Assembly: GCA_051382335.1 (NCBI GenBank)
Contig: JBBCAX010000033.1
Coordinates: forward strand, 62,891 to 126,890
Source: Deltaproteobacteria bacterium TL4
Lineage (GTDB): Bacteria; SAR324; NAC60-12
Length of the DNA: 64,000 bases
Reading direction: 5' to 3'
The position numbers and the translations under genes were made by a program. The notes beneath the pieces were generated by a model. That model was not told where the DNA came from. It ran no database searches and saw only the letters and a program-made list of their open reading frames with translations. Shown piece by piece: positions 43,807 through 63,880 of the stretch (position 1 is the first letter of the stretch; every line of letters begins with the position of its first letter).

Positions 43807-46800
43807 TTATTCCTTAGGTGACGAAAAATTGCAGGTAAGTTGAATGGTACCAGAATCCAGATCTCCATCCTTACAAGCTAAGCCTGTGTCAAAGTTCCAG
43901 TTAATGGGTTCTGCTGGAGTGAGTTTTGTGAAATCAGGAACCCTATAGGAATTACTACAATAATTACTTCCAGCCCAATGTGGAATCCCATTTTCCGCTG
44001 TGACCTCGACATTTTTGTGTAAAAGGGTCCCTCCAACGGAGATTTCAGCAATTCCCTCATTCTCTCCATAGCGGGCGAGCATACAAAGGTTTAAAATACC
44101 CTGAGGATTCGTCTTCTCATCAAAAGTATAACCCTTATAGGCCAAATAGCCATCGTTCTCAGCCTGTAAAATAAAGCCATCGAGCATAAAAAAACGCTCG
44201 CATTCCGTTTCGCATTTTTCAATACGTTCGACACACGCCGCATCGCAAGCTGAAGTTTGGAGACTGGCACACTCTGTCTCGCATCTGTTAGTTTGAAGCT
44301 CAGGACAGGTCTTCTGTAAATTTGACCGATCACAACAGGCTCCCCCCAATGTTGTGATGACACTCCCGCATAAATTGTTTGAAACCTTAACATCAGCAAG
44401 CTTAAAACTAAGGCCATCACTCATCTCTCCGCCCTCATTCCCGGTATAGACGAGCCAATAGTCAGCATGTTCAGGGATGGGGATATCTTCCAGTTTTGCG
44501 ACAAGTTCTTGATCTTTTTTAAATTCTCTAAACAAGAGGGGTTCCTCATTCATAGCCTTCAACTTAAGGCCATCCTGCTCCCCCCAATACACCTTATAAT
44601 AGGTAATGATTGACTCGTCATTTGCTTTGGTTAAGCTCAGTGTCCCAGTGAGTATTCCCTGTTTCGGATTTTCATCCTCAAAACTTATACCCGCCGCTTT
44701 TTCAGAGGGAGGATAATTGTCAATAATCCTCTTAGCTAAATACCCCTCGGATTCGCCAGCATCGTTTGCTTTATATATTAAAAAATAAACGGCACTTTCA
44801 ATAGATTCATTGTTTAGTGAGACTACTGGATTTTCTTTGGATACCGATTTAATCTCTTTTATTTTGCGTTCCTCACTATCACCCCAATAAAAATTATACA
44901 TTGTTACCTGAGTGTCCTTCTCCATTTTACTAAGTGCTAATTCACCTGTGATGACACCTTTGTCAGAGTTTATATCCTTAAATACTATTTCAAGCGTGTC
45001 GGCATCCTTGATTACAACAGGTTTACTGGCATCCTTGATTGGCAAAGAAAAAGGCTTCAGTCCTTCACCCCCCTCAAGGTTAGCCGAATAAACCAAGAAA
45101 TGCGTTGCTCCTTCAGGTATTGTTGCGTCAGTTAACTTAAAATCAGGTTTACCGTCCTTTTCGAATCTTTGAATGGCGGGTATATTTTTAATTATTTCCA
45201 TGCCATTTCCCTCATCCCGCGGCTTTCCCCAGTAAAGAAGGTAATATTCAATTTTGTTGTCTGTTCCTGGGGTAAGCACCATATTTCCTGATAACTTTCC
45301 ACCATTCGGATCACCATCCGTAAATGTGAGGTTTTTAGCCAGACCCGTCGGAGGAGTTCCCAAAGCTGTTCTGACCCAATATCGTTGGCTTACAGCCATC
45401 TCTCCCTTTATATTTTCCTGGCTTGGAAAAGACGCGATAAATTGAATGAGATGATATCCTTGCTTACTCTCAATACCAAAGTTTTCAATAGCAAGGAGTA
45501 CTTCTAGTCCTTCGTTGTCATTGCTGAGGGTTCCTTTGTCAAGGAAATCCAATGTACGCTTTAAATCATCCTTGAGATCCATAGTAATATCATCGACTTT
45601 AACATACAAAGCGAGATCCTTTAAACCGTCTTTGCTCAATGCGGTATTAAACCTCAAAGGAAACTGAATAGATTCTTTTCTCGCTAAGGGCGTAATTGGA
45701 ACAAACACGTTTTCCTTTTCTTGAAGAGAAATCGAACTTCCGGCTTGAGGGACTCCAACCCAAACCGCCTCCTTTTGATTTTTATTTATCGCCTTAACGC
45801 TTACAATATTAGCGCCAGGAGGAATAAATACAGGACAGTTAAAGGCTCCCGATGCAGCCTTAAAAGCATACTGCTCTATCCCATTTTTACCCACAATATT
45901 ATTCACCTCAACCAGTAACGTATTGCCATCAAATTGGGAAAGAGTCCCCTTAATCCACGCATTAACCAGCTTTACTAATGAAACCGAACCTTCACCATTT
46001 TGTGAAAGGCTTGAAGAACAACCTGAGGTTTCACCGTAGAGACTGGGATTTTCCAAAACAAAGGAACTCACCTCAATTGCTGGCTGTAAGTTCGGATCAA
46101 CAGTCTCTTGTAACGATAATATGAGTTGGGGCAAATTTTCCAGTTTCCCGTTACTTAAAAATTCAACCTGATGCTGTGCTTCGTAACGAAGCGAAGCCGT
46201 GACTGAAAAAACAACTGAATGCGAGGCGGGAACATTTTCAAAGCGAAAATTGCCTTTGGAATCACTCACTGTCGAACTGCGAGATCCGCCAACATCAAAA
46301 GAGATGTTGATGTCACGATAATCGGAAGGAGTCGAATTTTCCAATTGGATTGTACCTTTAACAGTAGCGGCAGGTTCATGATAATATTCCTTGCTGATCC
46401 ATGAGGTCACATAGCTTCCCCGGGCATTGGAAACAAGCTTTAAGCGGAAGCGGTTTGAGCCTGATTTCAAAGGAATAGGAAGATCAATGCTGCCATCAGC
46501 TTCGATAAAATCACTAATCGATATCGGTATGGTTAACTCATTCCAAAACAACTGCAAGTCTCCCATACTCTTATCAAAAGCAACGTTTTGGGAAATCTGG
46601 TCATAATAATAATGTTCATAAACAACGCCCTTTATTCTTCCCAAACCTTCCTCATCATTAAAAAAATACAAGGCCGCTATAAAAGGAGCGATTTCACTGG
46701 CTGTTTTTTGATTCACAAAATTTTCATCATTCCTGTTTTGGGGTGTTTTTTTGACAAGAACAAGAGGTTTTAAGTCAAGAAGAGTACTATCCTTGGAATA

Positions 46801-48948
46801 ATAGTTCATCAAAGGGTGCCATTCCCGTTTATCCTTCAATTCATACCCCTCTTTTTCAACTTTTATTTGCAGGTAAGGAAACATGCGGGGATCTATTTCA
46901 TCAAAAGCAAAATTATTGGTATTCCCGTACCGTTCATCCGTACAAGCAAAGACATAGGTCGCCTCCTGTTGAAAAAAGTCGCTATTGCACGTTCCATCCT
47001 CAGTACATAAACTCGGTTTAGTCATTGCGTCAAAAGGATTGCTCTGACAAAAACGACTCATTTCGGTCAGAGTTTGTGTGGCATAAGTTTGTGGATTGGA
47101 GGCATTCCATACAAAAGAATTATGCTTAATGTTTACAAAACCTTCCAGGACTTCATTCCAGGTTTCTCGCTCCTTAGCTTCAAAGGTTATTCGAGGATGT
47201 TTCACAGTGACCTGAATTAGAGCGGTTTGCAAGCCTTGAATCATTGCGTTTTTCAAATAATGGCCCTCATTAAACCCAGTATTTGACCCCAAAGAGGAGA
47301 ACAATTCCGCCTTATTGAACAAGCTCTTGTTATCGACTATAATGTTTTTCACAGACCATTCATATTGGGCACTTTGATGAAACCCTGCCTTGATTAAATT
47401 GTTTTTTTTATCTCTGATTAAATTCAAATTCCAGGGAGAATCAAATTGAACTGGGTTCGGAGGCAAAAGTGCTCCTGTCATTTCCAGTTGATCGAGACTT
47501 AACATCCCTGGAACACGGAGAGTTACTTTGGCTCCTTCAACTAATTTCCCCGTATCACTATTTTCAGTAACTCTTCCGCGAATCATGCCCGCTCTATGTA
47601 TTATTTTTTGTAAAGAAATTGGTTTTACCGAATTCTCTTTAAAGATACTTGAAGCCAAACCTGAGACCCGTGTTCTATAACCAGGAGCTATGATTTCAAA
47701 AAAAGCTTTTACTTCTGCTGTTGCGAAGACAGCCTCAAAAGCTCCCTGATCATCCGGACGATAAGGGATGCCATCCAGTAATACCATGACATCAGACTTT
47801 ATTACCGATTCAGAATCAACGTCTTGAACTGAAAACTTGGAATTTTTGTGCGCAAAACCTGAGGCATTTTCAATTACAATGAAGAGTTCCGACGGCAAAT
47901 GAGCCAAATCCTCTTGTTGTTGCGCAATGGAGATGGGCACCAAACTACACACACCTTCATTTCCATTTAATTCTTTAAATGCTTCATCCTTACAAAAGGC
48001 TTCACCCGTGAGGATCTTAATTACGGCGTCTTCTACATTGCTCGTATAAAAATAACTGGCCTCAGCATCTGACTCTGGAGTTAAAGACTTCCATTTTTCG
48101 GTGCTCTGATCGTAATGATACACGGAAAGTCTCAGATGTTCAGTCTCATCTTTCTTAAAGATTGTTGACACCTCAGCAAACTCGAAACCACGAAACAAAC
48201 GGGTTAGGCCAAACTCAATACTTCCCTCAAACCCTAGTGTTTCCAAGGGGATAACGTCATGCTTGCTGTTAGTTGCGACAATCCCTATTCCAGCAACCAC
48301 TCTTGCTCCCGTTGAAAGCACACTCTTCTTAAATTCATCCAAAGCTTTTGAATCCTGGATGATGCCCATGTGTGACAGAGGTTGTACTTGTAAATAAACA
48401 TCTTCAGAAAGCTGCTTGGTTTCAAGTTTCAACCGGAGGGATCTTTGAGAATCAATTAATATTTGAGAACGGGGAGTGGAAATCTGAGTTCTTAAAGGGA
48501 TAAACGTCCGTACTGGATCCAATGTTATTAAATAATAAAAACTAAAGTTATCCTTGGATGGCTTGGAGAAAGAGGCGCTTTTAAAACGGGGATTATAATA
48601 GCGTCCAGGGGGATTCACCCACAATACGGCTAACTCCTTTGTTCCTTGTAACGCGATATAAATATTGCTTAAAGGCTCGGAACCATCTGAATAAACACCG
48701 CCTTTACAAACGGATTTATTCCCAGCTTGACCTTCAATACATTGAGCTAATTCAAATTTTCCATTACTCAAGGTAAAGGTAGAGGCTAAGAGTCTCATCT
48801 CTGTGGACAGTGCGCTATCAGTTGAGGCCTCAGCTTCAATTGAACTGCCATCGTTGCGGGAGTGATCATAGGAAAGGTTTCTGCAACTACTTAAGATGAT
48901 CCCGGCAATTAACGCAATAACAATCCTTAGAATCCACTTTCGAGCCAT
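43807..48948 (-). CDS. Large lipoprotein (~1710 aa) with beta-sandwich domains, three YWG repeats and a Cys-rich C-terminus
   Basis: Lipobox LSS-C after MARKW; carboxypeptidase-regulatory-like segments; three FxD...GxxxG...YWG...LVY repeats; Cys cluster near the end. Confidence 0.8.
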   Translation of the reverse strand: MARKWILRIVIALIAGIILSSCRNLSYDHSRNDGSSIEAEASTDSALSTEMRLLASTFTLSNGKFELAQCIEGQAGNKSVCKGGVYSDGSEPLSNIYIALQGTKELAVLWVNPPGRYYNPRFKSASFSKPSKDNFSFYYLITLDPVRTFIPLRTQISTPRSQILIDSQRSLRLKLETKQLSEDVYLQVQPLSHMGIIQDSKALDEFKKSVLSTGARVVAGIGIVATNSKHDVIPLETLGFEGSIEFGLTRLFRGFEFAEVSTIFKKDETEHLRLSVYHYDQSTEKWKSLTPESDAEASYFYTSNVEDAVIKILTGEAFCKDEAFKELNGNEGVCSLVPISIAQQQEDLAHLPSELFIVIENASGFAHKNSKFSVQDVDSESVIKSDVMVLLDGIPYRPDDQGAFEAVFATAEVKAFFEIIAPGYRTRVSGLASSIFKENSVKPISLQKIIHRAGMIRGRVTENSDTGKLVEGAKVTLRVPGMLSLDQLEMTGALLPPNPVQFDSPWNLNLIRDKKNNLIKAGFHQSAQYEWSVKNIIVDNKSLFNKAELFSSLGSNTGFNEGHYLKNAMIQGLQTALIQVTVKHPRITFEAKERETWNEVLEGFVNIKHNSFVWNASNPQTYATQTLTEMSRFCQSNPFDAMTKPSLCTEDGTCNSDFFQQEATYVFACTDERYGNTNNFAFDEIDPRMFPYLQIKVEKEGYELKDKREWHPLMNYYSKDSTLLDLKPLVLVKKTPQNRNDENFVNQKTASEIAPFIAALYFFNDEEGLGRIKGVVYEHYYYDQISQNVAFDKSMGDLQLFWNELTIPISISDFIEADGSIDLPIPLKSGSNRFRLKLVSNARGSYVTSWISKEYYHEPAATVKGTIQLENSTPSDYRDINISFDVGGSRSSTVSDSKGNFRFENVPASHSVVFSVTASLRYEAQHQVEFLSNGKLENLPQLILSLQETVDPNLQPAIEVSSFVLENPSLYGETSGCSSSLSQNGEGSVSLVKLVNAWIKGTLSQFDGNTLLVEVNNIVGKNGIEQYAFKAASGAFNCPVFIPPGANIVSVKAINKNQKEAVWVGVPQAGSSISLQEKENVFVPITPLARKESIQFPLRFNTALSKDGLKDLALYVKVDDITMDLKDDLKRTLDFLDKGTLSNDNEGLEVLLAIENFGIESKQGYHLIQFIASFPSQENIKGEMAVSQRYWVRTALGTPPTGLAKNLTFTDGDPNGGKLSGNMVLTPGTDNKIEYYLLYWGKPRDEGNGMEIIKNIPAIQRFEKDGKPDFKLTDATIPEGATHFLVYSANLEGGEGLKPFSLPIKDASKPVVIKDADTLEIVFKDINSDKGVITGELALSKMEKDTQVTMYNFYWGDSEERKIKEIKSVSKENPVVSLNNESIESAVYFLIYKANDAGESEGYLAKRIIDNYPPSEKAAGISFEDENPKQGILTGTLSLTKANDESIITYYKVYWGEQDGLKLKAMNEEPLLFREFKKDQELVAKLEDIPIPEHADYWLVYTGNEGGEMSDGLSFKLADVKVSNNLCGSVITTLGGACCDRSNLQKTCPELQTNRCETECASLQTSACDAACVERIEKCETECERFFMLDGFILQAENDGYLAYKGYTFDEKTNPQGILNLCMLARYGENEGIAEISVGGTLLHKNVEVTAENGIPHWAGSNYCSNSYRVPDFTKLTPAEPINWNFDTGLACKDGDLDSGTIQLTCNFSSPKE

Positions 48949-48992
48949 AAACTTCTTTTGAGTAGCTGAGGACAACACAACCAAGTTTTAAG

Positions 48993-50615
48993 TTAATATT
49001 TGGTACAATCCGCTTCACGTATGATTCTTTGTGCCTCAGGAAACAAATTTTGGGTACATTCTTTGAGAGACGTTTCGGCAAAAACCACATCCACACGTCG
49101 ATTCACTTTTCTCGCGTTATTCAACGCCGCCCCGCTTTTGCCCTCTATAGAAACCATAGGTTGAGTATAGGCAAAACCAATCGTGGAAATCCGCAGGGGA
49201 TCGTAACCCAACTGATTCATCATCAACCAAGCCACAGTAGTGGCACGATCTGCGCTTAATTCCCAGTTTCTGCCCATGCCGCCATCACGAAAGGGCACAT
49301 CATCGGTATGCCCTTCAACACGAATGGAATCATTCGCAAGCTCTTCAAAAACTTTAATTTTCCCTAAAAAAGCTTTTAATGACTCCAGCTTATCCTCTCT
49401 TATCGTCGCGCTGCCACTGGCAAACAGGAAGTCCTCAGGTAACGTCAAGATACACCGGCGTTTGGTCGATATTAATTTAAAACCACCGAATTCAGCGCTG
49501 TTGTTGTTCAAAAAATTTTCAATTCCAGAACAGTCTTTGGTTTTTATCGTGTCGGAAAAAGTAATCTTGTGAGTTTTTCCTTCATACACCACCGCATTTA
49601 AAAGTTCCTGCTCTTTCATGGAAATTTCCAAAGTTTTTTTCCCCTGGATGTTCAGCACATCAATCAAGAGAATTCCTTCCTGTTTCCCTTGAGGAATCAC
49701 AATTTTCGGTTCGCTCGTCAGTCTGTAGTCACTCCCCGGTTGAGCTGTGCCTTTTAACTCCAGCGGGATCTCCACATCCAAGCCACTTGGTTCACTCAAG
49801 ATGGCCGAAATCGCAATTTTTTCCTTGGACCGTACATCACTTTCCTCCTGACGAAACTTCACTACAGGAATCTCATCATCATCATCAATCACCAGGGTCT
49901 GCGACATGATCAATCCGCCCAAGATCCGATCATCAAAGATTTGAGCTCCTTCTTTTACTTGGGGTCGGCCCAAACTAACGCGAATTTCTTCCCGACGTTC
50001 ATTAAGTTTATCATTAATGAGACACAGGACCACTTCCACCGTGTTCTGTTTAGGCGCAAAAACCACCTCTTGTTTGTCTCTGACATAATCAACCCCAATC
50101 ATGACACTCTCTGGCGATATGCCTTGTCCTGGCTTGCACTGGGAATGGACACCACCGTTGACCGCATTGCCTTCAAAGATTAGAGGCACAACGACAGAAT
50201 TGGAAACAGTACGAGTGAGCGTGATTCTTAACACTATCTGCGATTTACTTTCTATAATGTGTGTCTCCACCGATTGAGAAGCAATGATGAATTGATTATC
50301 ATGTTCCGAAGCGACGTTGTCGCCTAAAATCCTATGAATCGCCTCCAAAAAATCAGAATCATTCGCATACGATTCTTTCCTTATACCCGAAGCCCTCAAT
50401 GCGGTAGACATACTTTCAGGAAGTTTTGACTCCAAGATCTTGAGGACTTGATCCGAGAGCATAAACGGAGTAAACAGGTTAACGTTGGGTTTACTTCTAA
50501 GAGACAGGTAAATGAAGAAACAAAGCAGCAAAGTAATCAGATCCGCGAAGGTCAATAACCATTTTGCCACTTTATGAGATTCAGCTTGTTTTCTTTGACG
50601 CACTGGGTCCCTCAA
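48993..50615 (-). CDS. motB: MotB-like stator subunit with two Calx-beta domains and OmpA-like peptidoglycan-binding domain
   Basis: WLLTFADLITLLLCFF (conserved Asp); LFASGSA, IRVEGHTDDVP, NWELSADRA, NRRVDV; two GxA..GxDY...VF/IP Calx-beta units. Confidence 0.88.
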   Translation of the reverse strand: MRDPVRQRKQAESHKVAKWLLTFADLITLLLCFFIYLSLRSKPNVNLFTPFMLSDQVLKILESKLPESMSTALRASGIRKESYANDSDFLEAIHRILGDNVASEHDNQFIIASQSVETHIIESKSQIVLRITLTRTVSNSVVVPLIFEGNAVNGGVHSQCKPGQGISPESVMIGVDYVRDKQEVVFAPKQNTVEVVLCLINDKLNERREEIRVSLGRPQVKEGAQIFDDRILGGLIMSQTLVIDDDDEIPVVKFRQEESDVRSKEKIAISAILSEPSGLDVEIPLELKGTAQPGSDYRLTSEPKIVIPQGKQEGILLIDVLNIQGKKTLEISMKEQELLNAVVYEGKTHKITFSDTIKTKDCSGIENFLNNNSAEFGGFKLISTKRRCILTLPEDFLFASGSATIREDKLESLKAFLGKIKVFEELANDSIRVEGHTDDVPFRDGGMGRNWELSADRATTVAWLMMNQLGYDPLRISTIGFAYTQPMVSIEGKSGAALNNARKVNRRVDVVFAETSLKECTQNLFPEAQRIIREADCTKY

Positions 50616-51496
50616 GTCAAAATATTTCTATAGACAAAATCACGGTCATCATAAGGTCGATAGATTTCCAAATCTTCTAACATTGTGTGAACAGGCTCCT
50701 TACGCTTGATATGAATGATCGCCTCACGAATCATCTCCAACTGTGTGGAGATTGAGGCTTTAAGCTCTTTCCGTTTCGTCGCAACCGGTTCAAAAATCAA
50801 GTTAGTGAGAACCACACCATACAAGGTCGTGAGCAAAGCCACTGACATCCCCTGCATCACCACACTGAGATCATCCTTTGAAGTAAAAATCAAAACCAAG
50901 CCGATAATCGTTCCCATCATTCCAAAAGCGGGAGCGGTTGCGCCCATAAAATTTAAAACCTCAATTTCTTCGTTGGCCCTTTTTTCAAACATATCAATTT
51001 CAGACTCAATAATTTCATTAATCATTATTTCCGAGACATCCCCGTGTTGAATCAGCCGGGACACCCAACGTTTCATCAAACTATGTTTGATTTGGTTGAT
51101 TCCGGCACCACCAATACCACCAGGACTGTTTTGCATTTTTGCGAGACGTTCAGCATCTTGGAAAATATCATTGATATTCTCCTGATCATCATAAGGCTGC
51201 AAGGCCTTGGCAATGTAACGAAAACTGCGCATGGCCCGCTGATAAGGAAACGCGATCATGGTTGAGGCATAAGTTCCCCCCAAAACAATGAAAACTGATT
51301 TTAAGTCCACAAAGCGCGATAATAGGACTAATAGGGAATCTTCAGAGAAATACCTCAATAAAATCAGGTATAAACTTGAATATTCCGCAGGCCAGATCAC
51401 GCCAAACAAAATAAAGAAAATACCCAGAAAAAAACCGCTGATGGTGAATAATTTATTCTTATTAAACCTTTCTTGTGGTGACTCCTCTGTTTTCAT
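50612..51496 (-). CDS. motA: MotA/PomA-like stator subunit
   Basis: FVDLKSVFIVLGGT, APAFGMMGTIIGLV, MSVALLTTLYG...EP; 4-bp overlap with motB. Confidence 0.9.
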   Translation of the reverse strand: MKTEESPQERFNKNKLFTISGFFLGIFFILFGVIWPAEYSSLYLILLRYFSEDSLLVLLSRFVDLKSVFIVLGGTYASTMIAFPYQRAMRSFRYIAKALQPYDDQENINDIFQDAERLAKMQNSPGGIGGAGINQIKHSLMKRWVSRLIQHGDVSEIMINEIIESEIDMFEKRANEEIEVLNFMGATAPAFGMMGTIIGLVLIFTSKDDLSVVMQGMSVALLTTLYGVVLTNLIFEPVATKRKELKASISTQLEMIREAIIHIKRKEPVHTMLEDLEIYRPYDDRDFVYRNILT

Positions 51497-51497
51497 C

Positions 51498-53474
51498 TTA
51501 TTTTCCTCGTTTTAGACTGATTTTTTCCAGGTTAATCACTCCATACTCAACCATTTGGAGAAGTTTTTTCATCATAATACTCTTGTAATATAACGAATTT
51601 TTTAAACTTTCATTATTCTCTTGGCTACTATATTTTTCTTCTTCCAATCGAATCTTATCTTTGATGGTTTGATGGTCTATATATTCTCCACACACCAAAA
51701 TCTTGTTAATGACCTCTTCATTTTGCCCTAACAGAAAAGTCACAATATTAAAATCCTGAAAGTTTCTTTCTACTTCAAGCTTGGTGCTGAACAAGACCTG
51801 TTTGACAATCGTGTCCTCAATATGAGGAATATCCTCAAGGTAAACACTGCGCTGTCCAATTTTATCAATGAAAGAAGACACATTGACCACACTTTTATCA
51901 GCGCTTAATCTTTCCGCGGTTTCTAAAATGCCCTTAAATACTTTGGTCTGTGTTTGAACCAACAGATCTAACACACGCTGCATTCCATCGACATTCTCTC
52001 CTTGACGCATTGCTCTAACCTTGCCCTCAAGAGCCTCCGATAAGGCTTGAACTCGAGTCGAGTCGTAGTTTTTCTCACTCATATCAACCCACGCCGTCAG
52101 AATTTTTTCTTTAGGCAGAATCGGCTGTGACGCACTTTCAAAAATGATTTTCTTATAAGCCTCATAATCGATTCCTTGTAAGTGATAGTTTACGACAAAA
52201 GTAAAATCATCCCGATTTTCAAAGGGGATTTCTTTGATTTTATCCAAGGCGTTTAGAACCGCAGAAGGGAGATTCTGACTCATTTCTTTCAAAGATTCTG
52301 CGGTCAGTTGATAACGATCCTGCTTGCCTAACAACTTGGTCGCCAAATCCGTTTTTACATGGCTAAAAACAATTCCAAGCTCTTCCACAGTACAAGCTTC
52401 AAGCAATTCACGCAGTTCTTGTGAGGATAATTGACGTAAGTAACTGAAAGGCTTTGGCGTGGTTTCACCTTCACTGTCCGCTGAGGCTAAAGCCAACTCT
52501 TGAGTAACCTCTTCCTGCTTTTCAATCAAATTGGCTATTTTCGCGCCTATTTGCGCAATTTGATTGATCGCCCCCATTAAAGGATGATTTTCCTGATCGG
52601 TTTCCAGAGTCACTTTCATGGAACTTTGGTCCTTGCTCTGGCTTGAGGTGGATTTCAACAGGAACATCCCTAACAGCACCACAATGATCAGTAGCGACAA
52701 CAAGGCGATTAAAATCCACTCCAGAGGCGTGGGGGCAAAAACGCCCACCATTTGAGGGTTTTGCGGCAACAGCGTAGTTAAGCCAAAGGTCTGCAATTCA
52801 TTGGGAAGTTCGGAACTAAGCTCCAAAGCATTTTTCAAGGCTGTTTCCGCGGCTTTTGAATCTTCAGTTGCTAACTTTGCTTTGGCTTCCCGAAGATAGT
52901 TGAGATACTTAAATAAGGTCCCCGCATGGGCGGAAAGTTTTTTTTGTGGTTCCCCGGAGTTCAATTGCTGCATCCGCAGAGGATCCACCAGCAGTAATTG
53001 CTCTAAACGATCATTTTGTTCATCCCACTCAATTTTTTGATTGATGATTTTATTCTTAATTTCAGAAAGATTCCTGTCAACACTGTTACTGACAATCAAG
53101 GTGACTGTTTTATGAGTACTGAGCTCTTCACTGTTTTTACCCACAATGACTTTCGCGCCTTCTAAAAAGTCAGATTTTTGGGTATTGATCGTTACCCCGT
53201 AAACACTGTTCATGACAACGACAACATCCACGATTTCCTTGTAGGATCTTATACTTTCATAGATCTTGGTTCTCAGTTCCAGCGCGTTTTTGCTCTGACT
53301 GCTATTCTGAGTCGTAATGTCTTTATAACTGATTTGAGCACCCGACTGAGCAAAACACGGTGTCCCATACAACCACAAAAATAATATCCAGGCTAGAAAG
53401 AAAATTACCGTTTTGCCTGTTCCGTAACTTACAGTATTGAGACTTTTTGAGAGAAATAAAGATATATCAGACAT
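51498..53474 (-). CDS. Membrane-anchored FliG-like protein: signal peptide, periplasmic FliF-ring-like segment, TM helix, FliG middle/C-terminal-like domains
   Basis: Signal (CFA-Q); TM WILIALLSLLIIVVLLGMFLL; PFSYLRQLSSQELRELL...LGIVFSHV...ATKLL (FliG-M-like); VDGMQRVLDLL and VYLEDIPHIEDTIVKQVL (FliG-C-like); ends 1 bp before motA. Confidence 0.65.
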   Translation of the reverse strand: MSDISLFLSKSLNTVSYGTGKTVIFFLAWILFLWLYGTPCFAQSGAQISYKDITTQNSSQSKNALELRTKIYESIRSYKEIVDVVVVMNSVYGVTINTQKSDFLEGAKVIVGKNSEELSTHKTVTLIVSNSVDRNLSEIKNKIINQKIEWDEQNDRLEQLLLVDPLRMQQLNSGEPQKKLSAHAGTLFKYLNYLREAKAKLATEDSKAAETALKNALELSSELPNELQTFGLTTLLPQNPQMVGVFAPTPLEWILIALLSLLIIVVLLGMFLLKSTSSQSKDQSSMKVTLETDQENHPLMGAINQIAQIGAKIANLIEKQEEVTQELALASADSEGETTPKPFSYLRQLSSQELRELLEACTVEELGIVFSHVKTDLATKLLGKQDRYQLTAESLKEMSQNLPSAVLNALDKIKEIPFENRDDFTFVVNYHLQGIDYEAYKKIIFESASQPILPKEKILTAWVDMSEKNYDSTRVQALSEALEGKVRAMRQGENVDGMQRVLDLLVQTQTKVFKGILETAERLSADKSVVNVSSFIDKIGQRSVYLEDIPHIEDTIVKQVLFSTKLEVERNFQDFNIVTFLLGQNEEVINKILVCGEYIDHQTIKDKIRLEEEKYSSQENNESLKNSLYYKSIMMKKLLQMVEYGVINLEKISLKRGK

Positions 53475-53619: not shown

Positions 53620-54825
53620 TTAAATGTTATTATCTTTCATCCAGGTGTCCAGAGATCTGATCAACTTATCCAACTTGGGATCTCTTCCCCCAACTGCGGC
53701 ACTGGATTCTGAGGTCACCTGCGACATTTCCCAACTTTCCATAGTCAATCGTAACGCTAACGCCCCCCTCATTGTGAGTAATTGCGCTTTATTTTTGGGA
53801 CTGAGGTGAGAGGAGGAATCGCCAAGTCTCTGATCGATAATCAACAAAGACTTTGCCCAGTTTCCCTCAGCATTGGAGGTTTTTATTTCCTTCAGCGATT
53901 CTTCGGTACTCCGACGTTGGAAGGTCGCGAGTTTTTCTTTTTCTATTAATTCCACCGCCAAACGATTAGCAATCTGCTTCTGATCCATTAGAGCATCTGC
54001 CAGGGAACTTGCCAAAGAATCACTATCTAACAGGTGTTTGCTTTCCAAAGACTGCAAGATTTCTCGTATAACCGCTGCCAAGGTGTCCTTCGAAATACCG
54101 GCTTTTATCCGTTTTTCCAGATATTGACCAAAAGGACTATTTTGTTTATCCATGTTCGTCCAGGAGGGATTGTTGATAAAGTCTTCCAGATTGAGATTTA
54201 GCCGCATCTTACGTGAGATAAAATCACCAAACCCGGATTGATCACTCTCTTTGGATTTCCAGGCATCGTTGCTAACGAAATCGTTGACTCTAACCTTAGG
54301 ATTGATATTTCGATTCAAAAAATCCGCGAAAACCGTGGATTTACTTTTCTCTTCAGTCCATGAAGGATCATTCATAAACTCATTAATATCAAACCGGACT
54401 TTCAACAAAGTATTCTGAAACGCGTTATTTTTGGCGAGTTCTTCCGCAAGTTTATGACTCACTTGATCCAGCGTGGAAGCGTTTTGAAGATCCGTAGTGG
54501 TATTCCCATTGGTACTGCCATTGGTATTGGGGGCATAAACCTCATCAATTTCAAAAACAAAGTTATTCAAATCACTGACTCGTTGAGAAACGGACTGAAA
54601 CAATTCCTTGTCCCTCAGGACCCGAACATGTAAAAGCTTTTCACCCTCATGGTGTTCTTCGTATAACTCCACGTTGTATTGATAGGTACTGACATTGAAT
54701 TGTTCTGAGTATAAATGCGTTGACACTCTTCCGGAAGCCTTTTCAGTACGGGAATTGAGTGAACCGCATCCCGTCAGCAAACTCAGCATAACCACAAAAA
54801 TAACGTCTATCCGATCTTTATTCAT
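53620..54825 (-). CDS. Hypothetical lipoprotein with three internal ~26-27-aa repeats
   Basis: Lipobox LTG-C; RFDINEFMNDPSW / KVRVNDFVSNDAW / NLNLEDFINNPSW; helical TPR-like end. Confidence 0.75.
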   Translation of the reverse strand: MNKDRIDVIFVVMLSLLTGCGSLNSRTEKASGRVSTHLYSEQFNVSTYQYNVELYEEHHEGEKLLHVRVLRDKELFQSVSQRVSDLNNFVFEIDEVYAPNTNGSTNGNTTTDLQNASTLDQVSHKLAEELAKNNAFQNTLLKVRFDINEFMNDPSWTEEKSKSTVFADFLNRNINPKVRVNDFVSNDAWKSKESDQSGFGDFISRKMRLNLNLEDFINNPSWTNMDKQNSPFGQYLEKRIKAGISKDTLAAVIREILQSLESKHLLDSDSLASSLADALMDQKQIANRLAVELIEKEKLATFQRRSTEESLKEIKTSNAEGNWAKSLLIIDQRLGDSSSHLSPKNKAQLLTMRGALALRLTMESWEMSQVTSESSAAVGGRDPKLDKLIRSLDTWMKDNNI

Positions 54826-54840
54826 TTCAACCTCTTCTCA

Positions 54841-55881
54841 TTAAAATGCCCATCCCAAAGCCAAATAGTAACCATAAATCGCGACAGGATGATCCTCACT
54901 CACAACGGAATCATTACCAATAAAGTTTAAATAATAAGCGCTCAGTGTAAATTGATTTACGATGAGCGTTCCTCCGGAAACAAAATAAAACGGGGTAAAT
55001 AGGGAGGATTGCATCTGTCCAATCCCAATTCCGATTAAAGCATCGCCCCATCCCAAACTCTGAGCCCACTCCAATTTCCCGTCAATTAAAAAACCTGTTA
55101 ACTCTCCCGCCCGTTGATCCTCTTTAATTTTCTCATTATCATCAAAAAAAAGAGTCACCCCCGTGGTAAAATAAAAAGGCTCAATCAAAGTAAAGGGTTT
55201 GGCCATTCCTATCAAGGAAGCTTGATGCTGAACAATTTTTTCCAGACCAGGCGTTTTGTCATCGGCTCCTTTAACTATTAAACCAATGGGCAGGATCAAG
55301 CCCCCAACGGACATTTCCAACACAGGCAATCCCGGGAGAAGCCAGGGCTCATGAATGATTGGACTTTTTGTCGAATTTTCTTCAACAGTATTATAGAATG
55401 TAGAAACCGCACTGATTTTTCTTCCCTTTTGCTCCACATAAATGACCTGAAATTCTGTAACGTTGAGTTTTTTGGCGATTTCCAGTCGATTGTTAATATT
55501 TTCCAGACCACGGACAATAATCGTTCGATAAGAAATCGAGTCTGCCTGTTGGACCTTAATCGTTCGATGATAGACGAAGCCACAAATCTGACACTCCATC
55601 ATATCCAGCCCTACTATCCCCTTCTGTTGTATTTGCTTTTTAATCGTCGCGAAATTAATATTTTCGACATTATGGTCAAAAATAATCCAATAGGCTTTTT
55701 GTTTGCTTATTTGTTTTCCACCACGTTCCCTATTTCTGTCTTGGCTCAGCTTTGCGTCAAACGGCGGTGCTTCCTTCTTAACCAGAGTTTTTGATCCAGA
55801 ACTGTCGGCTTTTTTTGATAACGCCTGCGCGAAAAGCAAATGAGGTAAGACTAAGATTACAATAATTATTAATTTTTTCAC
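54841..55881 (-). CDS. Exported protein with probable C-terminal beta-barrel
   Basis: GTG start after GAGG; signal LLFA-Q; ends YYLALGWAF. Confidence 0.7.
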   Translation of the reverse strand: MKKLIIIVILVLPHLLFAQALSKKADSSGSKTLVKKEAPPFDAKLSQDRNRERGGKQISKQKAYWIIFDHNVENINFATIKKQIQQKGIVGLDMMECQICGFVYHRTIKVQQADSISYRTIIVRGLENINNRLEIAKKLNVTEFQVIYVEQKGRKISAVSTFYNTVEENSTKSPIIHEPWLLPGLPVLEMSVGGLILPIGLIVKGADDKTPGLEKIVQHQASLIGMAKPFTLIEPFYFTTGVTLFFDDNEKIKEDQRAGELTGFLIDGKLEWAQSLGWGDALIGIGIGQMQSSLFTPFYFVSGGTLIVNQFTLSAYYLNFIGNDSVVSEDHPVAIYGYYLALGWAF

Positions 55882-55938: not shown

Positions 55939-58245
55939 TCAATAAAAAACGCCAAACCCTATAAACACGCGCCTTAAGTTTTTCGATTGAGTCCACCGCT
56001 CTTTAACATAAGTGCGCTGTCCCGCAAATTTTGTGATTTTGCTCTCCTCAAAATCATCCTGATATAGGTTCGGAACATAAAACGCGGGTTGAATTCCCAG
56101 ATTAAAATAATAATGTTCATATCCCTGCCACCCTAATTCAGCAAGACCCAAGACACCTCTCGCTCTGGCTCGGTGTTCAAATTTCTTCGAGTCAAACTTA
56201 AATCCTATCCCTTCAGACTCAGAAATGGAATGTCCACGGTAATTCAAGGTTGTGTGTCCAAGCCCGCCACCATACCCCCAATACCCTCCTGCCAACCAGC
56301 CTTGATTTGAAAAAAAAGTCCGGTACGTTACTGAAAATAAAATCCGCTCAATCCGCATTCGGTCTCCTGCAGGGGTGTTGGCCAAAGTGTAGGAATCAAA
56401 GCTTGCATCAATTTTCGATAATAACTCATAAAGAGGCTTTAGGCCTTCACCGGCATAATCCATTTGAAAATGAAGTTGAGTTTTTTGACTTAAGTTATAA
56501 TCAAAAAAAACTGCAACCCCTGTTGCCCCGCCTACAGAAATAATCCCCGATATGCCAAGACTTCTGGGGTCTTCAATTCGCCATTCCGCTCCGTTCTTCA
56601 ACGGATAACCCGGATCTTCGGTGCTTTGCGTTTGACGCTCTGCGTCTTTCTGACTTTTGATGTGGCTTTCACTCATTAAAACAGGTTTCGCAAAGGGAAG
56701 CTTGACACTCACACTTTTTGAACTGAGTTGCCGTAACATGATTTCTTGATACCACTTTTGATCGGTCGTAAACACAATCAAATGTGTGGCTCCCAAGGGA
56801 ATTGGCGTATTTTGAGGAAAAACATACTCAATGGTTTTACGTTTTTTAAGAAGTTTCGCCTCAAATGTTACAATAGGTTCATGATTAGGCAGTCGTTTGC
56901 GTTGACCGCTTCCCCAAAACAATAAATAATGCGAAATGGCTCCTTCTTTACCGCTTCTCGAAATCACAACCTTTCCATTCAAAAACTCTGCTGTAGAGCC
57001 GCTATCGATAAACTGAATTTTTTTTGCCTGAGTTTTAGGAAGTTGGTAATCATTTATTCTTGCGGCCAGCCCTTGACTCATCTCGCCTTCATCATTCCGG
57101 GTGTAAGCCAAGATATGAGTCGCCTCAGACGGAATCTCGTCGATCAACACATACCGATACTCGCGACTGACGGCATAGTAAGGTGAAAATAACTGTTGTC
57201 CCAAAGACTGATACCACGACTTTTTGGGAATAATGGCAATTACTTTTTTGTTCCTTAGCTTATTTTTGGAACCACTTCCCCAATACAGACTATAAGCTGA
57301 AAGATCTCGTTCATCCACAGCCCTCGAAAGAATAATCTCCATTTTTTGTCTATCTTTAGCAAGCTTCTGAGTTGTTATTTTGAGCCCCCTTGCCGCATGC
57401 CCTGGCGCGCCGAGATCTTGTATCGGCATACTCAAGTATTGGTAACGCTGAGTCTGAGAGTTTTTGACCAGCATAAGCAAATGAGTTACATTCTCTGGAA
57501 TGGTACTTTCAACAAACTCATACTGATATGTATTGGGGGAATCAGGATCAGCCGGATATAAGGCTAAAGACACATTCCATTCAAAATCAAGCTCTTGGGT
57601 CACCTGATCCAACGCCTCAAATAAATCCTTTTCATTTCTAAAAATCCGCTGACTTAGTGAACTTATTTGATCCACAACGAGCGACTTGGAATCCTTGTCC
57701 TTGTCCTCGTGAACTAATTTTATTTTAAAAGGGACCATTAACATCAAAGGTAGTTTTAAATCGTAAATTTCAGCCTGATTCGTTCCCCAATACATCACGA
57801 AATCAGACTCAAAGCATGACCGTTTATTCGAGTCCTCCGCGGCATAGAACCATCCGCCACTGGTTTTTACCCAAATTTGCTCCGCTAATTTTATGGAATT
57901 CTGGGGTGCCAACCCTGGATTATGAGCGGAGACCTCGGGCTTTTTAAGCTCAACCTGATTCGTGAGATGTAAATGACAACTACTGTTTCCTGACCAGGTG
58001 GAAGGTTGCTCCGACTCCTTTTGCCTTGAACTCTCTCTGAGAAAGGTCATTTTACCACCGAGTATTCCTCCCGTTGAATTGTTATCCTCAAAACACCAGG
58101 TTCCAATCGTTTTGAATGTTTGACAAACAGGCTCATCGGCATATAAATACGGCACGAATCCAATTAGAAGCAGACACAAAATAATAATCCGCAAAAAGAA
58201 ATACCTCAATACTGTTAACGTACTCAAAACCTTCCTCATTGGCAT
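55939..58245 (-). CDS. Outer-membrane protein: three YWG repeats plus C-terminal beta-barrel
   Basis: Signal LYA-D; YWG/FWG...IP.ATH repeats; Gly/aromatic strands ending VFIGFGVFY. Confidence 0.75.
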   Translation of the reverse strand: MPMRKVLSTLTVLRYFFLRIIILCLLLIGFVPYLYADEPVCQTFKTIGTWCFEDNNSTGGILGGKMTFLRESSRQKESEQPSTWSGNSSCHLHLTNQVELKKPEVSAHNPGLAPQNSIKLAEQIWVKTSGGWFYAAEDSNKRSCFESDFVMYWGTNQAEIYDLKLPLMLMVPFKIKLVHEDKDKDSKSLVVDQISSLSQRIFRNEKDLFEALDQVTQELDFEWNVSLALYPADPDSPNTYQYEFVESTIPENVTHLLMLVKNSQTQRYQYLSMPIQDLGAPGHAARGLKITTQKLAKDRQKMEIILSRAVDERDLSAYSLYWGSGSKNKLRNKKVIAIIPKKSWYQSLGQQLFSPYYAVSREYRYVLIDEIPSEATHILAYTRNDEGEMSQGLAARINDYQLPKTQAKKIQFIDSGSTAEFLNGKVVISRSGKEGAISHYLLFWGSGQRKRLPNHEPIVTFEAKLLKKRKTIEYVFPQNTPIPLGATHLIVFTTDQKWYQEIMLRQLSSKSVSVKLPFAKPVLMSESHIKSQKDAERQTQSTEDPGYPLKNGAEWRIEDPRSLGISGIISVGGATGVAVFFDYNLSQKTQLHFQMDYAGEGLKPLYELLSKIDASFDSYTLANTPAGDRMRIERILFSVTYRTFFSNQGWLAGGYWGYGGGLGHTTLNYRGHSISESEGIGFKFDSKKFEHRARARGVLGLAELGWQGYEHYYFNLGIQPAFYVPNLYQDDFEESKITKFAGQRTYVKERWTQSKNLRRVFIGFGVFY

Positions 58246-60731
58246 AGTTCTTTTTTATTACTATGAAACCGTGGATCACTATTAAAACGTGGAGGATTTT
58301 CAATGTTGTAGAGGCTTCTGTCACTACTGATTCTGATCCAAAAACCACTACCTCCTTGAAGCGCTGCCAAATCCTTACACCCTGCGCTCTTTAACTCCTT
58401 TTGGATCGCTGAATGGGGAGAGTACGCTCTCCACGCATTATCGTTCCAGGTCCAAATTGAATGGACCTTATTCAACATATACCAATCCGGTATCGGATCT
58501 TCGTTTCCACCATCACCGCTCCCACATGCGTACATAAAAAGTAAGGCCACCATCACAGCCAAACCCGCTTTAGGAAACATCACGTCATAGTGAGCTGTAG
58601 GTGACCAACGACTGAGTATTAAATTCCCGCCTAACAATACCAGAAACAACACACCTAAAATCTCAACAAACAGGAGTCCCTCATTCAACATTCCCGAAAT
58701 TTTTGCGGAATGAGTTGAAAAGATCCCTTGTTGAGCATCATCATCCTTTCCAGCATCTCCAGAGAGTGCGACAAAAGTATGATTTTGAATCTTTTTCTTC
58801 TCAGAGAAGTTGATCATTTTAACCACGTCGTCAACACTCAACGTTTCAGAAATTCCTATTAAATTCCACTCGGATTTCAAGGTTTTCAGCCTCGCGGAGA
58901 TAGGATATCCACCCCTGTCTTCAAAATACAACTTTGAGTCGTCAGCACTTTTCACCCAAAACCCCTCACCTGGATTAATAGACTCCAGCAGGCTGACGCC
59001 CTCCAAGGTATATTGTTTGAGTAAACTCTGATCGGGAGTATAAAACGCCCACTTATCTTCTTTCCAAGCCCATACTTCCTGATACTGGCCAAATAGTGCA
59101 CTCAAATCTTCAGCACCAAGCGTTACAGCCCCCGGCAGCGCAACCAGATTATGACCTTTGACTAAATCGACACTCAAAGGTTTCAGACTGAAGGAAACTT
59201 CTTCATCTTTAGCTATCGCTCTGATCTGACCGCATTCTCTTAATTCAGCACTCCCTGAAGTTGACGTGAGACTGGTAAAATCTTGCTCCATTTTTGTGTC
59301 TATCTGAATGCGTGTAGTGCTTGAAGGAGAAACCAAATAGAGAGGATAGGTTTTCGATTTCCCCTTCTCATCAACGCAATCTTTGGTTCCGAGAAAAAAG
59401 CCCTCATTATTTTTAGACTCAGGTTCGGCGATATCCACATTCATTAAATTTTCTTGTTGTCGGGACTTATCTCTTTGCGTTTCGGGAATTGCGGCTTCAA
59501 AACTGACAGTCATTCGCAAGGCTTTGTCTTGCTCAAGCTCTTCAAAGGTCACACCTTGCTCAAATTTAGGAAATAAACTCACTCTGCTAACCGACGTGCC
59601 TGTAGGGGGCACTGAAACCAAAGCCTGGACCGCGCCTGAGGCATTAAGAGAAGCCTTGGTTCGAACGATGGTACTTGCGGAAGAGGGAAATTCGGGAAAA
59701 GCAATCAACGCGGTACCATCCGTCATTATTTTGATTTTACTCCCTTTAAGCGCAGTCACCTGATTCGCGGTGTTCGTACTTTCTCTGTAATAGGAAGAAA
59801 TATTCGCACTGCTTCCGTCCCCTATAAGGGCTGAAGGCTTGTCCAGATAATAGGAAGAAAGTTGGGTTTGACCATATTTACCTACTTCCCCTTTTAGTTC
59901 ACGCTTCAAACCCCCATTGTCAAATTGACTGGTGATGGTGGTCCCAGACTTTGTTCGTTTAAGGCTTGCGCCGCGTTGTGTATCAAAGATCGATTTAGTG
60001 AGGATTCCACTTGCGTTTTCAATTTGCAAAATATTCCTTGCGGAACCATCCTTAAAAAAATACGTTTTGGCAAAAATCTGCCTGATGTCTTGTTCCCTCG
60101 AGGTTTGCCTACTTGCAGAACCTGAATCGCTTTCATTTGGATCAATGGGAATCAAGACCTCTACCAGTTCGTCCTGTTTTTGACCTTCCACCTCAATTTC
60201 TTCCTCAGTTCCAACTTGAATGAGATGTGGAATTCCCGCCTCAGTAGACATCCCTGGAAATTTTTTTGTTTGACTTACCGAACAAAATGATTTGGTTGGA
60301 AGAACCGTACAGGTTTTAACCACGTCAACCTCTTCTCCATTTCCCTCAGAAACAACAGCCCCCGCCTTTGCGGGATCATCAATTTGTATTGATGACGAAC
60401 CATCAAGGTTCACCCTAGTTGTAATGGATGGACCTTCCGAAATTGAAGATTCTACAACCGAAGTTCCTTGGTCATCCACGTTCACTGTGGTTCCCGCCTT
60501 TGCTTCAATTTTTGTGGAGCTTTGATCCTTCACCCCTTTAAACTGAATATTTTGAAAGACTTTCCCCGCTGTATCAATTTTAATCGCAATGACTGGAGCG
60601 GTCTCTCCTGTTCCAAACGTTGTGCTAGAAATTGAAGAACCGTCACCGTTCATATTGGCAACGCTCCCTTGAGGCAGAGTTACCTTAGTCTTCATCTCAC
60701 CTTTTTCGAAAGTATTTTCTAAACTATCCAC
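58236..60731 (-). CDS. Surface-protein-like ORF, probably the C-terminal half of a frameshifted giant protein
   Basis: No signal peptide; S/T/G-rich; two (G/E)(H/W)NL...W.W....W..Y.P...G.GFW repeats; two hydrophobic helices near the end. Confidence 0.65.
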   Translation of the reverse strand: MDSLENTFEKGEMKTKVTLPQGSVANMNGDGSSISSTTFGTGETAPVIAIKIDTAGKVFQNIQFKGVKDQSSTKIEAKAGTTVNVDDQGTSVVESSISEGPSITTRVNLDGSSSIQIDDPAKAGAVVSEGNGEEVDVVKTCTVLPTKSFCSVSQTKKFPGMSTEAGIPHLIQVGTEEEIEVEGQKQDELVEVLIPIDPNESDSGSASRQTSREQDIRQIFAKTYFFKDGSARNILQIENASGILTKSIFDTQRGASLKRTKSGTTITSQFDNGGLKRELKGEVGKYGQTQLSSYYLDKPSALIGDGSSANISSYYRESTNTANQVTALKGSKIKIMTDGTALIAFPEFPSSASTIVRTKASLNASGAVQALVSVPPTGTSVSRVSLFPKFEQGVTFEELEQDKALRMTVSFEAAIPETQRDKSRQQENLMNVDIAEPESKNNEGFFLGTKDCVDEKGKSKTYPLYLVSPSSTTRIQIDTKMEQDFTSLTSTSGSAELRECGQIRAIAKDEEVSFSLKPLSVDLVKGHNLVALPGAVTLGAEDLSALFGQYQEVWAWKEDKWAFYTPDQSLLKQYTLEGVSLLESINPGEGFWVKSADDSKLYFEDRGGYPISARLKTLKSEWNLIGISETLSVDDVVKMINFSEKKKIQNHTFVALSGDAGKDDDAQQGIFSTHSAKISGMLNEGLLFVEILGVLFLVLLGGNLILSRWSPTAHYDVMFPKAGLAVMVALLFMYACGSGDGGNEDPIPDWYMLNKVHSIWTWNDNAWRAYSPHSAIQKELKSAGCKDLAALQGGSGFWIRISSDRSLYNIENPPRFNSDPRFHSNKKELCQ

Positions 60732-63700: not shown

Positions 63701-63880
63701 TTGACCAATGTCCATTATAGCACCCCCTGCGAATTCAAGAACATTACTCAGCGTCTGATTCACCTTCACCTTAAGGGTCCCCCCTCTAAAAATCAAACGT
63801 GGATTTAGGTAATCGGACTTGGAGGAATCCTCCGAATTAAAGGCTTGATCTATGGTTAAGGTTGTATTTGAAGCAGCGAT
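60719..63880 (-). CDS. Adhesin-like beta-solenoid/Ig-fold ORF, apparently 5'-truncated
   Basis: L/T/G/N-rich LxLNGxxLTL repeats; FSPDNWN cadherin/Calx-like domain; PKD-like VMLDGSSS..YVWE. Frame stays open upstream of TTG 63796 to 63880 with no signal peptide. Confidence 0.65.
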   Translation of the reverse strand: MAASNTTLTIDQAFNSEDSSKSDYLNPRLIFRGGTLKVKVNQTLSNVLEFAGGAIMDIGQNVTLTYKETNNAFLDIGRQLTIRGATRDSSVFKNDVFLSLGTSDSQLFLENVEVTRIAFGKSDNALIGEMGVKANSRITTLVFEDMARVNIDQATELAVENDIGISNARLELLGGGTLKGNVFLENPKSKLVLNGNGGTVNKVVVTTDADLENGLISVEATKFTLNKFEIERNTVLDIKGNCTLMINDTLSVPKNATLTLKGAGTLDPEKNVVANGEIKLLNTEQQTQLIANDINLELGKPFQVGKLITNEGTHLTLNGNILLELNEGTTIGTLNLNSFTLTLASKETDLVIAGASEPVINLKSGRIYTNGADLTFAKEFIMDSDSTVIQSTGGVLAFNGGGNLTAGNLNLQNTEVRLGGDFTVASVVSIKTNYSTDLNICRYPQSSEADCKDVTMTIAQPLDFRNLLLNGKKLTLKSTETQSNLILTGSVALQSTDSIEVNSGVLDFVTNLTMTGGAISVSEEGKLALGKKADLTGGAITLAAESTLYLGNDVGFGASLTIENLTADQASIVELRGTVSISSTELRIGHLNLKEHTLTLKDGTLLSINQSLVMAKNNDEIVFKNATLRLEAGIEMTAGKILGGDAETTSATAKLLMAPDPSYNFSGKATLTLKNVEVNSTDNETAVTLIIKNSASDQTNLSLEGGKISNVWIDEGKGLFSTRDVPENPVNLKGFNYEDYGYDKHGFYMEKNKVETEKKPVVPKKYKDLQKIPDYKDWIVTEDQSDGELVLDVKLLSRPAGDVKIEFKVDKKTQDEIELLEYAMVFSPDNWNATQKQVVTGLEDDEFDPNVRVLVTASSTSEDSKYYNNKSEILNGESGIINEDNEEDHTPPKAIIGSKDQPHEYGTDINCVEQTNLVQVNEDSLVMLDGSSSYSDNSLIKDYVWEINGFALVTVQNPTSQNASFQTPEISEKHNDLTIKISLTVYDEQNASNIACLDFKVLKTEDCPKEGTHTGSYVKYPAQFGTKFVCEDQKIEFKGNGGSLILRILKWIV

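Follow-up and report, generated by a model that had tools for sequence, protein, structure and literature searches.

A rotor-like protein with predicted FliF-RBM3-like and FliG parts in one chain, encoded beside a MotAB stator in a SAR324 bacterium

Results

A single reading frame joins periplasmic, membrane and FliG-like parts

The DNA analysed here (the window) is a stretch of 64,000 nucleotides from Deltaproteobacteria bacterium TL4, a member of SAR324. It carries a run of minus-strand genes in the order barrel homolog, 401-aa lipoprotein, rotor-like protein (P0001), motA and motB. The rotor-like frame is intact over 658 codons with GGGG preceding its ATG by four bases, one base separates its stop codon from the start of motA, and motB overlaps motA. 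The neighbours of P0001 are motAB, the lipoprotein and exported proteins, and no flagellar structural gene was found among those tested with Pfam and NCBIfam.

54841..55881, minus strand: 346-aa exported protein, homologous to the outer-membrane barrel-like protein encoded first in a paralogous operon
53620..54825, minus strand: 401-aa lipoprotein, tentatively a weak homolog of T438 of that operon, confined to the N-terminal and TPR parts (HMM E 0.003; 2% by hhalign)
51498..53474, minus strand: P0001, 658-aa single-chain rotor-like protein with a likely signal peptide, a predicted RBM3-like domain, a TPR-like hairpin, a TM helix, FliG-M with an insert, and FliG-C
50612..51496, minus strand: MotA of flagellar type, apparently dedicated; channel motifs kept, rotor-contact charges lost
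48993..50615, minus strand: MotB, apparently dedicated; plug/TM segment with Asp25, Calx-beta insert and OmpA-like peptidoglycan-binding domain
43807..48984, minus strand: repeat-containing lipoprotein of 1725 aa, encoded immediately after motB; by position only, a candidate partner at the surface

The proteins at 55939-58245 and 43807-48984 share a repeat of about 107 residues, without a Pfam match, with large proteins on contigs C187 and C34, and a 1025-aa protein (60719-63796) has a weak FecR match and a PKD-like domain.

An earlier note on this DNA had described P0001 as a signal peptide, a periplasmic segment, one TM helix and then FliG-M and FliG-C motifs. Our analysis confirms this architecture, and every segment quoted there is present in the protein (ELRTKIY at residue 66, WDEQNDRLE at 150 and KPFSYLR at 341). 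Hydropathy gives two hydrophobic segments only, at 23-41 and 254-272. The first is likely a cleavable signal, with the predicted cut falling between C-F-A and Q, and 16 orthologs have a comparable junction (x-A/S, then E) just before the conserved mature domain. The FliG portion is in one frame with the second segment, a TM helix, and with the periplasmic domain, which is not the soluble-protein layout of FliG. Searched alone, P0001 matched no FliG or FliF model in Pfam or NCBIfam. The family alignment, A1, comprises P0001 and 14 of its 17 orthologs (one near-duplicate, one sequence with X and one partial sequence were left out), which are 19–25% identical to it. A full-length model made from A1, and thus from the window protein and orthologs only, was poor (mean pLDDT 49.9, pTM 0.23). 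The parts of P0001 are as follows.

53349..53474, minus strand: likely Sec signal peptide, residues 1-42, h-region about 23-36 (hydropathy and ortholog N-termini)
52992..53291, minus strand: predicted ring-building domain of the split, FliF-RBM3-like type, residues 62-161, containing a short beta insertion and ending in the D155 motif (profiles, model, fold search)
52779..52943, minus strand: TPR-like helical hairpin, residues 178-232 (homology to the TPR of T429, model helices)
52653..52721, minus strand: single TM helix, residues 252-274 (hydropathy, model)
52326..52454, minus strand: FliG-M, first part, residues 341-383, starting KPFSYLR, EHPQ motif not kept (PDB profile, model, shuffle-tested profile)
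52119..52322, minus strand: insert of about 68 residues (385-452) inside FliG-M
51996..52118, minus strand: FliG-M, second part, and linker helix, residues 453-493 (alignments, model)
51525..51992, minus strand: FliG-C, residues 495-650, with altered torque-helix sequence near 597-615 (profiles, model, fold search)

The cytoplasmic part corresponds to a divergent FliG-M and FliG-C

Comparisons through the 17 orthologs and two predicted folds show the cytoplasmic part of P0001 to be a divergent FliG-M/FliG-C. Profiles built without P0001 scored 13.8 bits for FliG-M (residues 342-383) and 23.6 bits for FliG-C (496-597), against maxima of 4.0 and 4.1 in 300 shuffles, and the P0001-family and paralog-family profiles align through both domains (96.9% over 199 columns). 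Pfam alone does not part MgtE from FliG, because family members match both: with 15 members searched singly at E<=1, MgtE_N was matched by 14, FliG_M by 13, FliG_N by six and FliG_C by five, and the best single-sequence match to MgtE_N (9.4e-7) was slightly better than that to FliG_M (1.1e-5).

The earlier note had named MgtE-N as the fold that might account for this part instead, and FliG proved the better match by both profile and structure. The best PDB matches of the A1 profile were eight FliG sequences (E 8.5e-8 to 0.003), with MgtE next at 0.03, and a VIA search of the A1-based full-length model against 48,161 chains placed FliG in the top five positions (Z 9.1-9.8). A separate model of residues 338-652, which leans to the FliG fold because sequences of the paralog family and of canonical FliG were in its alignment, shows FliG-C blocks at pLDDT 81-97 and matches T. 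maritima FliG-C with Z 9.2 (rmsd 3.6 Å, 88 residues). Its 13 best Foldseek rows were all FliG (none at E<=0.001), as were its 14 best VIA entries (Z 8.6-10.9, MgtE 4.9), the latter being a second look at Foldseek's matches only. No CBS pair or MgtE membrane domain had a Pfam match in P0001 or in family members. Lower by profile and fold and without these domains, the MgtE assignment is largely refuted.

Residues 275-340, at the position of FliG-N, are predicted with low confidence to hold one helix and contain no clear FliG-N. EHPQ is the FliM-binding motif of FliG; the P0001 columns aligned to EHPQ of the genome's own FliG read CTVE, and the motif is therefore not kept.

The FliG part of this copy has an insert and an altered torque helix

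An extra stretch of roughly 100 aa had been placed between FliG-M and FliG-C. The stretch exists, but it measures about 68 residues and lies inside FliG-M, and it is absent from the 14 aligned orthologs. It is possibly a partial tandem duplication, as the duplication signal reaches 4.9 bits against a shuffle maximum of 4.0 and residues 140-176 of one relative match both the 413-ward and the 448-ward stretches of P0001; no DNA repeat was found at the insert.

The torque helix is predicted in the model, but neither the FliG pattern (conserved Arg, acidic pair) nor the ortholog motif is kept. That motif, E(Y/F)(T/P)(E/D)(E/D)T(R/K), occurs in 16/16 orthologs and is absent from P0001, where this end of the protein taken alone did not rise above shuffles (2.2 bits against a maximum of 3.4). 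The classical FliG charges are also missing from the paralog family, which has its own motif, FPExxR, in 29/30 rows.

The periplasmic part is predicted to be an RBM3-like ring-building domain followed by a TPR-like hairpin

The periplasmic model runs through a helix (62-75), a strand (81-96), a loose insertion, a strand (116-128), a helix (136-145) and a strand (156-161), which matches the split ring-building arrangement reported for FliF RBM3 and SpoIIIAG (PMC4768692). The proposal of a ring-building fold here agrees with this predicted topology, and the ten best Foldseek rows were PrgK, EscJ, the Shigella inner ring and FliF (best E 0.003, none at E<=0.001). In the A1-derived full-length model VIA gave Z 7.9 for EscJ and 7.4 and 7.3 for FliF, but KH domains of ribosomal S3 tie with these at 8.2 and 7.8, and the fold alone is therefore not decisive for RBM3.

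The prediction of RBM3 draws on a chain of profile matches together with this low-confidence model. The chain passes through T429 and T438, two exported RBM3-TPR proteins of the paralogous operon (T438 being a lipoprotein), and through the rotor encoded there: by hhalign, the P0001 family matches T429 at 95.7% (score 53, maximum of 30 shuffles 25), T429 matches the paralog rotor at 51–65%, the paralog rotor matches T438 at 96–98%, and T438 matches FliF RBM3 at 96.4%. Direct profile comparison of the P0001 family was not significant with FliF RBM3 (0.5%, score 15, shuffle maximum 23) or with the paralog rotor's own RBM. One ortholog of T438 scores above the Pfam YscJ_FliF_C cut-off (E 2e-8), and weak matches to the same model fall within paralog-type rotors of other genomes. 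The suggestion that WDEQNDRLE is a diverged form of the FliF motif is supported: D155 is invariant across the family in A1, and this residue aligns with the RGD Asp of the paralog rotor family, itself aligned to the FliF motif.

RBM1 and RBM2 are absent: only some 20 residues separate the signal peptide from the RBM, the profile comparison with FliF RBM1-2 gave 0.08%, and PF01514 had no match at P0001. A homo-trimer prediction for residues 56-170 was uninformative (score 0.00), the fold of the partner itself being uncertain. Between the ring domain and the TM helix sits the TPR-like hairpin, which the earlier note had missed and which is homologous to the TPR of T429 (hhalign 92%, E 5.8e-7; score 38 against a shuffle maximum of 14). 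One polypeptide had been thought to supply both MS-ring-like and C-ring-like parts. The single frame stands, while the content is narrower: RBM3 only (S-ring-like) on one side and FliG only on the other, as there are no FliM/FliN or export genes near P0001.

The adjacent MotA and MotB form a flagellar-type stator with altered rotor-contact residues

By sequence the adjacent pair is a flagellar-type (FIT) stator. Pfam matches above cut-off in the window stator were MotA_ExbB, MotB_plug, Calx-beta and OmpA. MotA best matches MotA/PomA (E 1e-26 to 1e-21, with ExbB/TolQ models at 1e-6) and aligns to them across the cytoplasmic region, indicating that the expanded torque domain is present. In MotB the ion-binding Asp (Asp25) is kept; its periplasmic insert of about 300 residues includes Calx-beta, and the partner MotBs of relatives are also about 520 aa. 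The residues at the rotor-contact positions of MotA have changed. In a pairwise alignment N123, P125, G132 and Q150 stand opposite PomA R88, K89, E96 and D114, whose charges are needed for motility according to PMC10374538. The window MotA reads KM...GAG at this region, where partner MotAs have KR in 34/35 and at least two acidic residues in 35/35.

The rotor ortholog is followed by motA in 6/7 relatives whose wider locus was read, the exception being a genome (G060) with motA on another contig. In a tree of 42 MotAs six flagellar MotAs stand apart, and the window MotA joins 15 ortholog partners at 98/96; it is the longest terminal branch (1.45), its placement carries a long-branch warning, and best-hit scores agree with it. 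These comparisons of sequence and gene order support the view that motAB in the window is a dedicated stator of P0001, separate from the flagellar MotA.

A paralogous operon suggests how the fusion arose

The same genome carries a paralogous operon (G000:C41:15351-27246, L014) that encodes, in order, a barrel-like protein, T438, T429, a rotor (P0002), MotA, MotB and two repeat-rich lipoproteins. P0002 has the same layout as P0001 and passes the Pfam cut-offs for FliG_M and FliG_C. Residues 56-232 of P0001 do not follow P0002's own RBM and are colinear with the RBM and TPR of T429 (hhalign 97.0%, E 9e-11), whereas the TM-FliG part matches P0002. The 401-aa lipoprotein of the window, as a tentative homolog of T438, would have lost its RBMs. 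On the simplest reading, the operon was duplicated and P0001 came from a deletion joining the RBM-TPR gene, T429, to the part of its neighbour that encodes TM-FliG. Within the phylum, three families have the paralog type and one has the window type, and the wider spread of the former suggests that the paralogous operon is older and the window type derived. In several relatives (L134-L138, L084-L094) the paralogous rotor operon lacks an adjoining motAB, with a matching motA elsewhere in the genome.

Window-type matches fall in three genera, and this copy is strongly diverged

Window-type matches were found in 17/63 other genomes of the order (64 searched), all within one family and three genera, and many flagellated relatives had no match to the module. 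A HMMER scan with A1 over 1.84 billion representatives returned 15 at E<=1e-30; P0001 stands alone in that set as a singleton, with a best single match at E 1e-25. Two word-indexed searches of a 5.8-billion set returned only P0001 itself, blanks that reflect sensitivity, since orthologs exist. Identity to four relatives per gene, which are not independent of one another, was 19–23% for P0001, 43–44% for its MotA, 46–50% for the paralog rotor and 62–67% for FliF; within these comparisons the P0001-motAB module has changed more quickly than either the paralog rotor or FliF. In relatives (loci L069, L073 and L075) the module continues with an exported protein of about 420 aa, a FecR-domain protein and large surface proteins.

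Discussion

We favour, with rather more confidence than doubt, the reading that P0001 builds the ring of an envelope rotor-stator machine distinct from the flagellum, with the co-encoded stator acting on the FliG face of this ring and ion-driven work being passed outward. Once the signal is cleaved, neighbouring RBM3-like domains would associate laterally as a periplasmic ring, and this ring would hold FliG-M/C as a second ring under the inner membrane without FliF-FliG docking. A peptidoglycan-anchored MotA5B2 would pass ions and push on FliG-C. From the gene neighbourhood, the TPR hairpin and the co-encoded lipoprotein may transmit the work to the outer-membrane barrel and the large surface proteins, with adhesin export, shedding or movement as candidate outputs. 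Because both contact faces have changed in this copy, the push from MotA to FliG-C would either run through a rebuilt, less charged interface or have been lost, and torque coupling is uncertain here.

There is a lesser but real chance that this copy is mechanically uncoupled, with P0001 serving as a ring scaffold or sensor and MotAB as an ion channel or a TonB/Tol-like energiser that does not turn the ring. The conserved charges are gone from both contact faces together while the MotB Asp and the MotA channel motifs remain, FliG-M is interrupted by the 68-residue insert, and the module has diverged faster than its controls. However, FliG-C is full length and predicted to fold with high confidence, a rebuilt private interface would equally show matched change on both sides, and the classical FliG charges are missing from the paralog family too, although that family has kept a motif of its own.

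It is unlikely that the window operon is a redundant duplicate in slow decay. The long terminal branch of its MotA, the isolation of P0001 in both large sequence sets and the loss of RBMs from the upstream lipoprotein could be taken in this sense, but simple decay is argued against by the retained MotB Asp, the intact frames and the ordinary codon use (CAI at the 57th percentile of 2549 ORFs in the genome). The genes remain tightly spaced despite about 80% divergence, over which neutral drift would be expected to leave stops, and the hydrophobic helix pattern is kept.

We consider it very unlikely that the module belongs to the flagellar motor as an accessory or alternative component, such as a second rotor ring or an extra stator set. 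The genome does contain 11 flagellin matches and twelve FliM/FliN-type domains, most module-bearing relatives have flagellin, and engineered FliF-FliG fusions assemble rings and work (PMC4768692, PMC11481574). Against this, P0001 has no RBM1/RBM2 to house an export gate and no EHPQ, its tested neighbours include no flagellar structural gene, and the module goes unmatched in many flagellated relatives. Moreover, a relative (G069, 90% complete) has the paralogous module and no flagellin or FlhA was found in it, though it keeps a canonical FliG. A second flagellar system is rejected, given a single FliF, FlhA, FliP and FliE in the genome and no housing for an export gate.

A reading with an MgtE-N-like or generic helical repeat in the cytoplasm, a KH-like domain in the periplasm and an incidental likeness to flagellar proteins is barely credible despite the MgtE_N matches, the KH tie and a second Atlas match to an MgtE-named cluster (0.78; all Atlas matches fell below 0.9 and are leads only), since homology spans both FliG-M and FliG-C, the paralog passes FliG cut-offs, the next gene pair is a flagellar-type motAB and there is no CBS or MgtE membrane domain.

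As the subunit of a rotor-stator machine, P0001 is like the flagellar core in how it would work, but by several defining features it is not a member of FliF or FliG. It shares with the core (FliF, FliG and MotA5B2/PomA5B2) an RBM3-type domain before a TM helix, FliG-M/C below it, and a stator with plug, Asp and OmpA-like domain. It differs in being one chain in which a likely signal peptide replaces TM1, without RBM1/RBM2 and with an extra TPR hairpin and a short beta insertion; its FliG has no clear FliG-N and has an insert in FliG-M. The torque-contact charges are changed on both sides, the operon is without export, rod or filament genes, and MotB has a Calx-beta insert.

The Chlamydiaceae FliF-FliG fusion is likewise a natural single chain outside a working flagellum, but as described in PMC4768692 that protein is about 330 aa long with two TM helices, retains RBM2 without an RBM3-type domain, contains FliG-M only and is injectisome-linked, whereas the window system has an RBM3-type domain, both FliG-M and FliG-C and a dedicated motAB. 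P0001 is rejected as a Chlamydia-type fusion on this difference in layout. Engineered Salmonella and Vibrio FliF-FliG chains form rings, and rotate in Salmonella (PMC4768692, PMC11481574), but these are artificial, contain full-length FliF and are part of a flagellum. ExbBD, TolQR, AglRQS and ZorAB are ion-driven 5:2 motors that do envelope work other than swimming (for the GIT class and Zorya, PMC12505986), as proposed here, but have no FliG-bearing partner, while the window stator is of flagellar type and has one. The paralogous SAR324 operon shares gene order and homologous parts with the window; it encodes the RBM-TPR protein and the rotor separately, its FliG is much better preserved and its MotA retains the contact charges.

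FliG with flagellar-type MotAB has hitherto been tied to flagella, and the literature covered, which lies mostly outside subscription journals, contained no description of the P0001 family. A survey of stators treats flagellar-type MotAB as flagellar in the part cited here (PMC12505986). Our broadest proposal is a tentative one: SAR324 may run up to three rotor-stator sets, two of them flagellum-free, each with a one-chain FliF-RBM3/FliG ring and a private MotAB, and powering outer-membrane export or surface motility through a machine not yet described. In that case the window copy would be a fusion that followed operon duplication, with a contact rebuilt without the classical charges, and a natural orthogonal pair.

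If real, a minimal FliF-RBM3/FliG ring with its own stator and neither export gate nor filament would put the motor core to a second use and would model how that core could exist apart from the flagellum. Three cognate rotor-stator pairs in one genome would make rotor-stator specificity testable, and the window pair, with conserved charges lost on both sides, offers a test of the need for electrostatic matching in coupling. Because the paralogous operon lies in the same genome, it offers a direct view of how the fusion would have come about.

The flagellar set of the genome also includes one canonical FliG, with canonical fliE and fliF on contig C21, and there are three flagellar-type MotAs in all. 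On C392, three FliM/FliN-type domains lie beside a 142-aa FliG-M-like ORF. Two stand-alone proteins of 264 and 292 aa (G000:C54:12135-12929 and C146:3581-4459) carry a well-kept FliG-C behind an unrelated N-terminal domain, and at G000:C22:7208-9360 a flagellar motA is followed by two short tandem motB paralogs.
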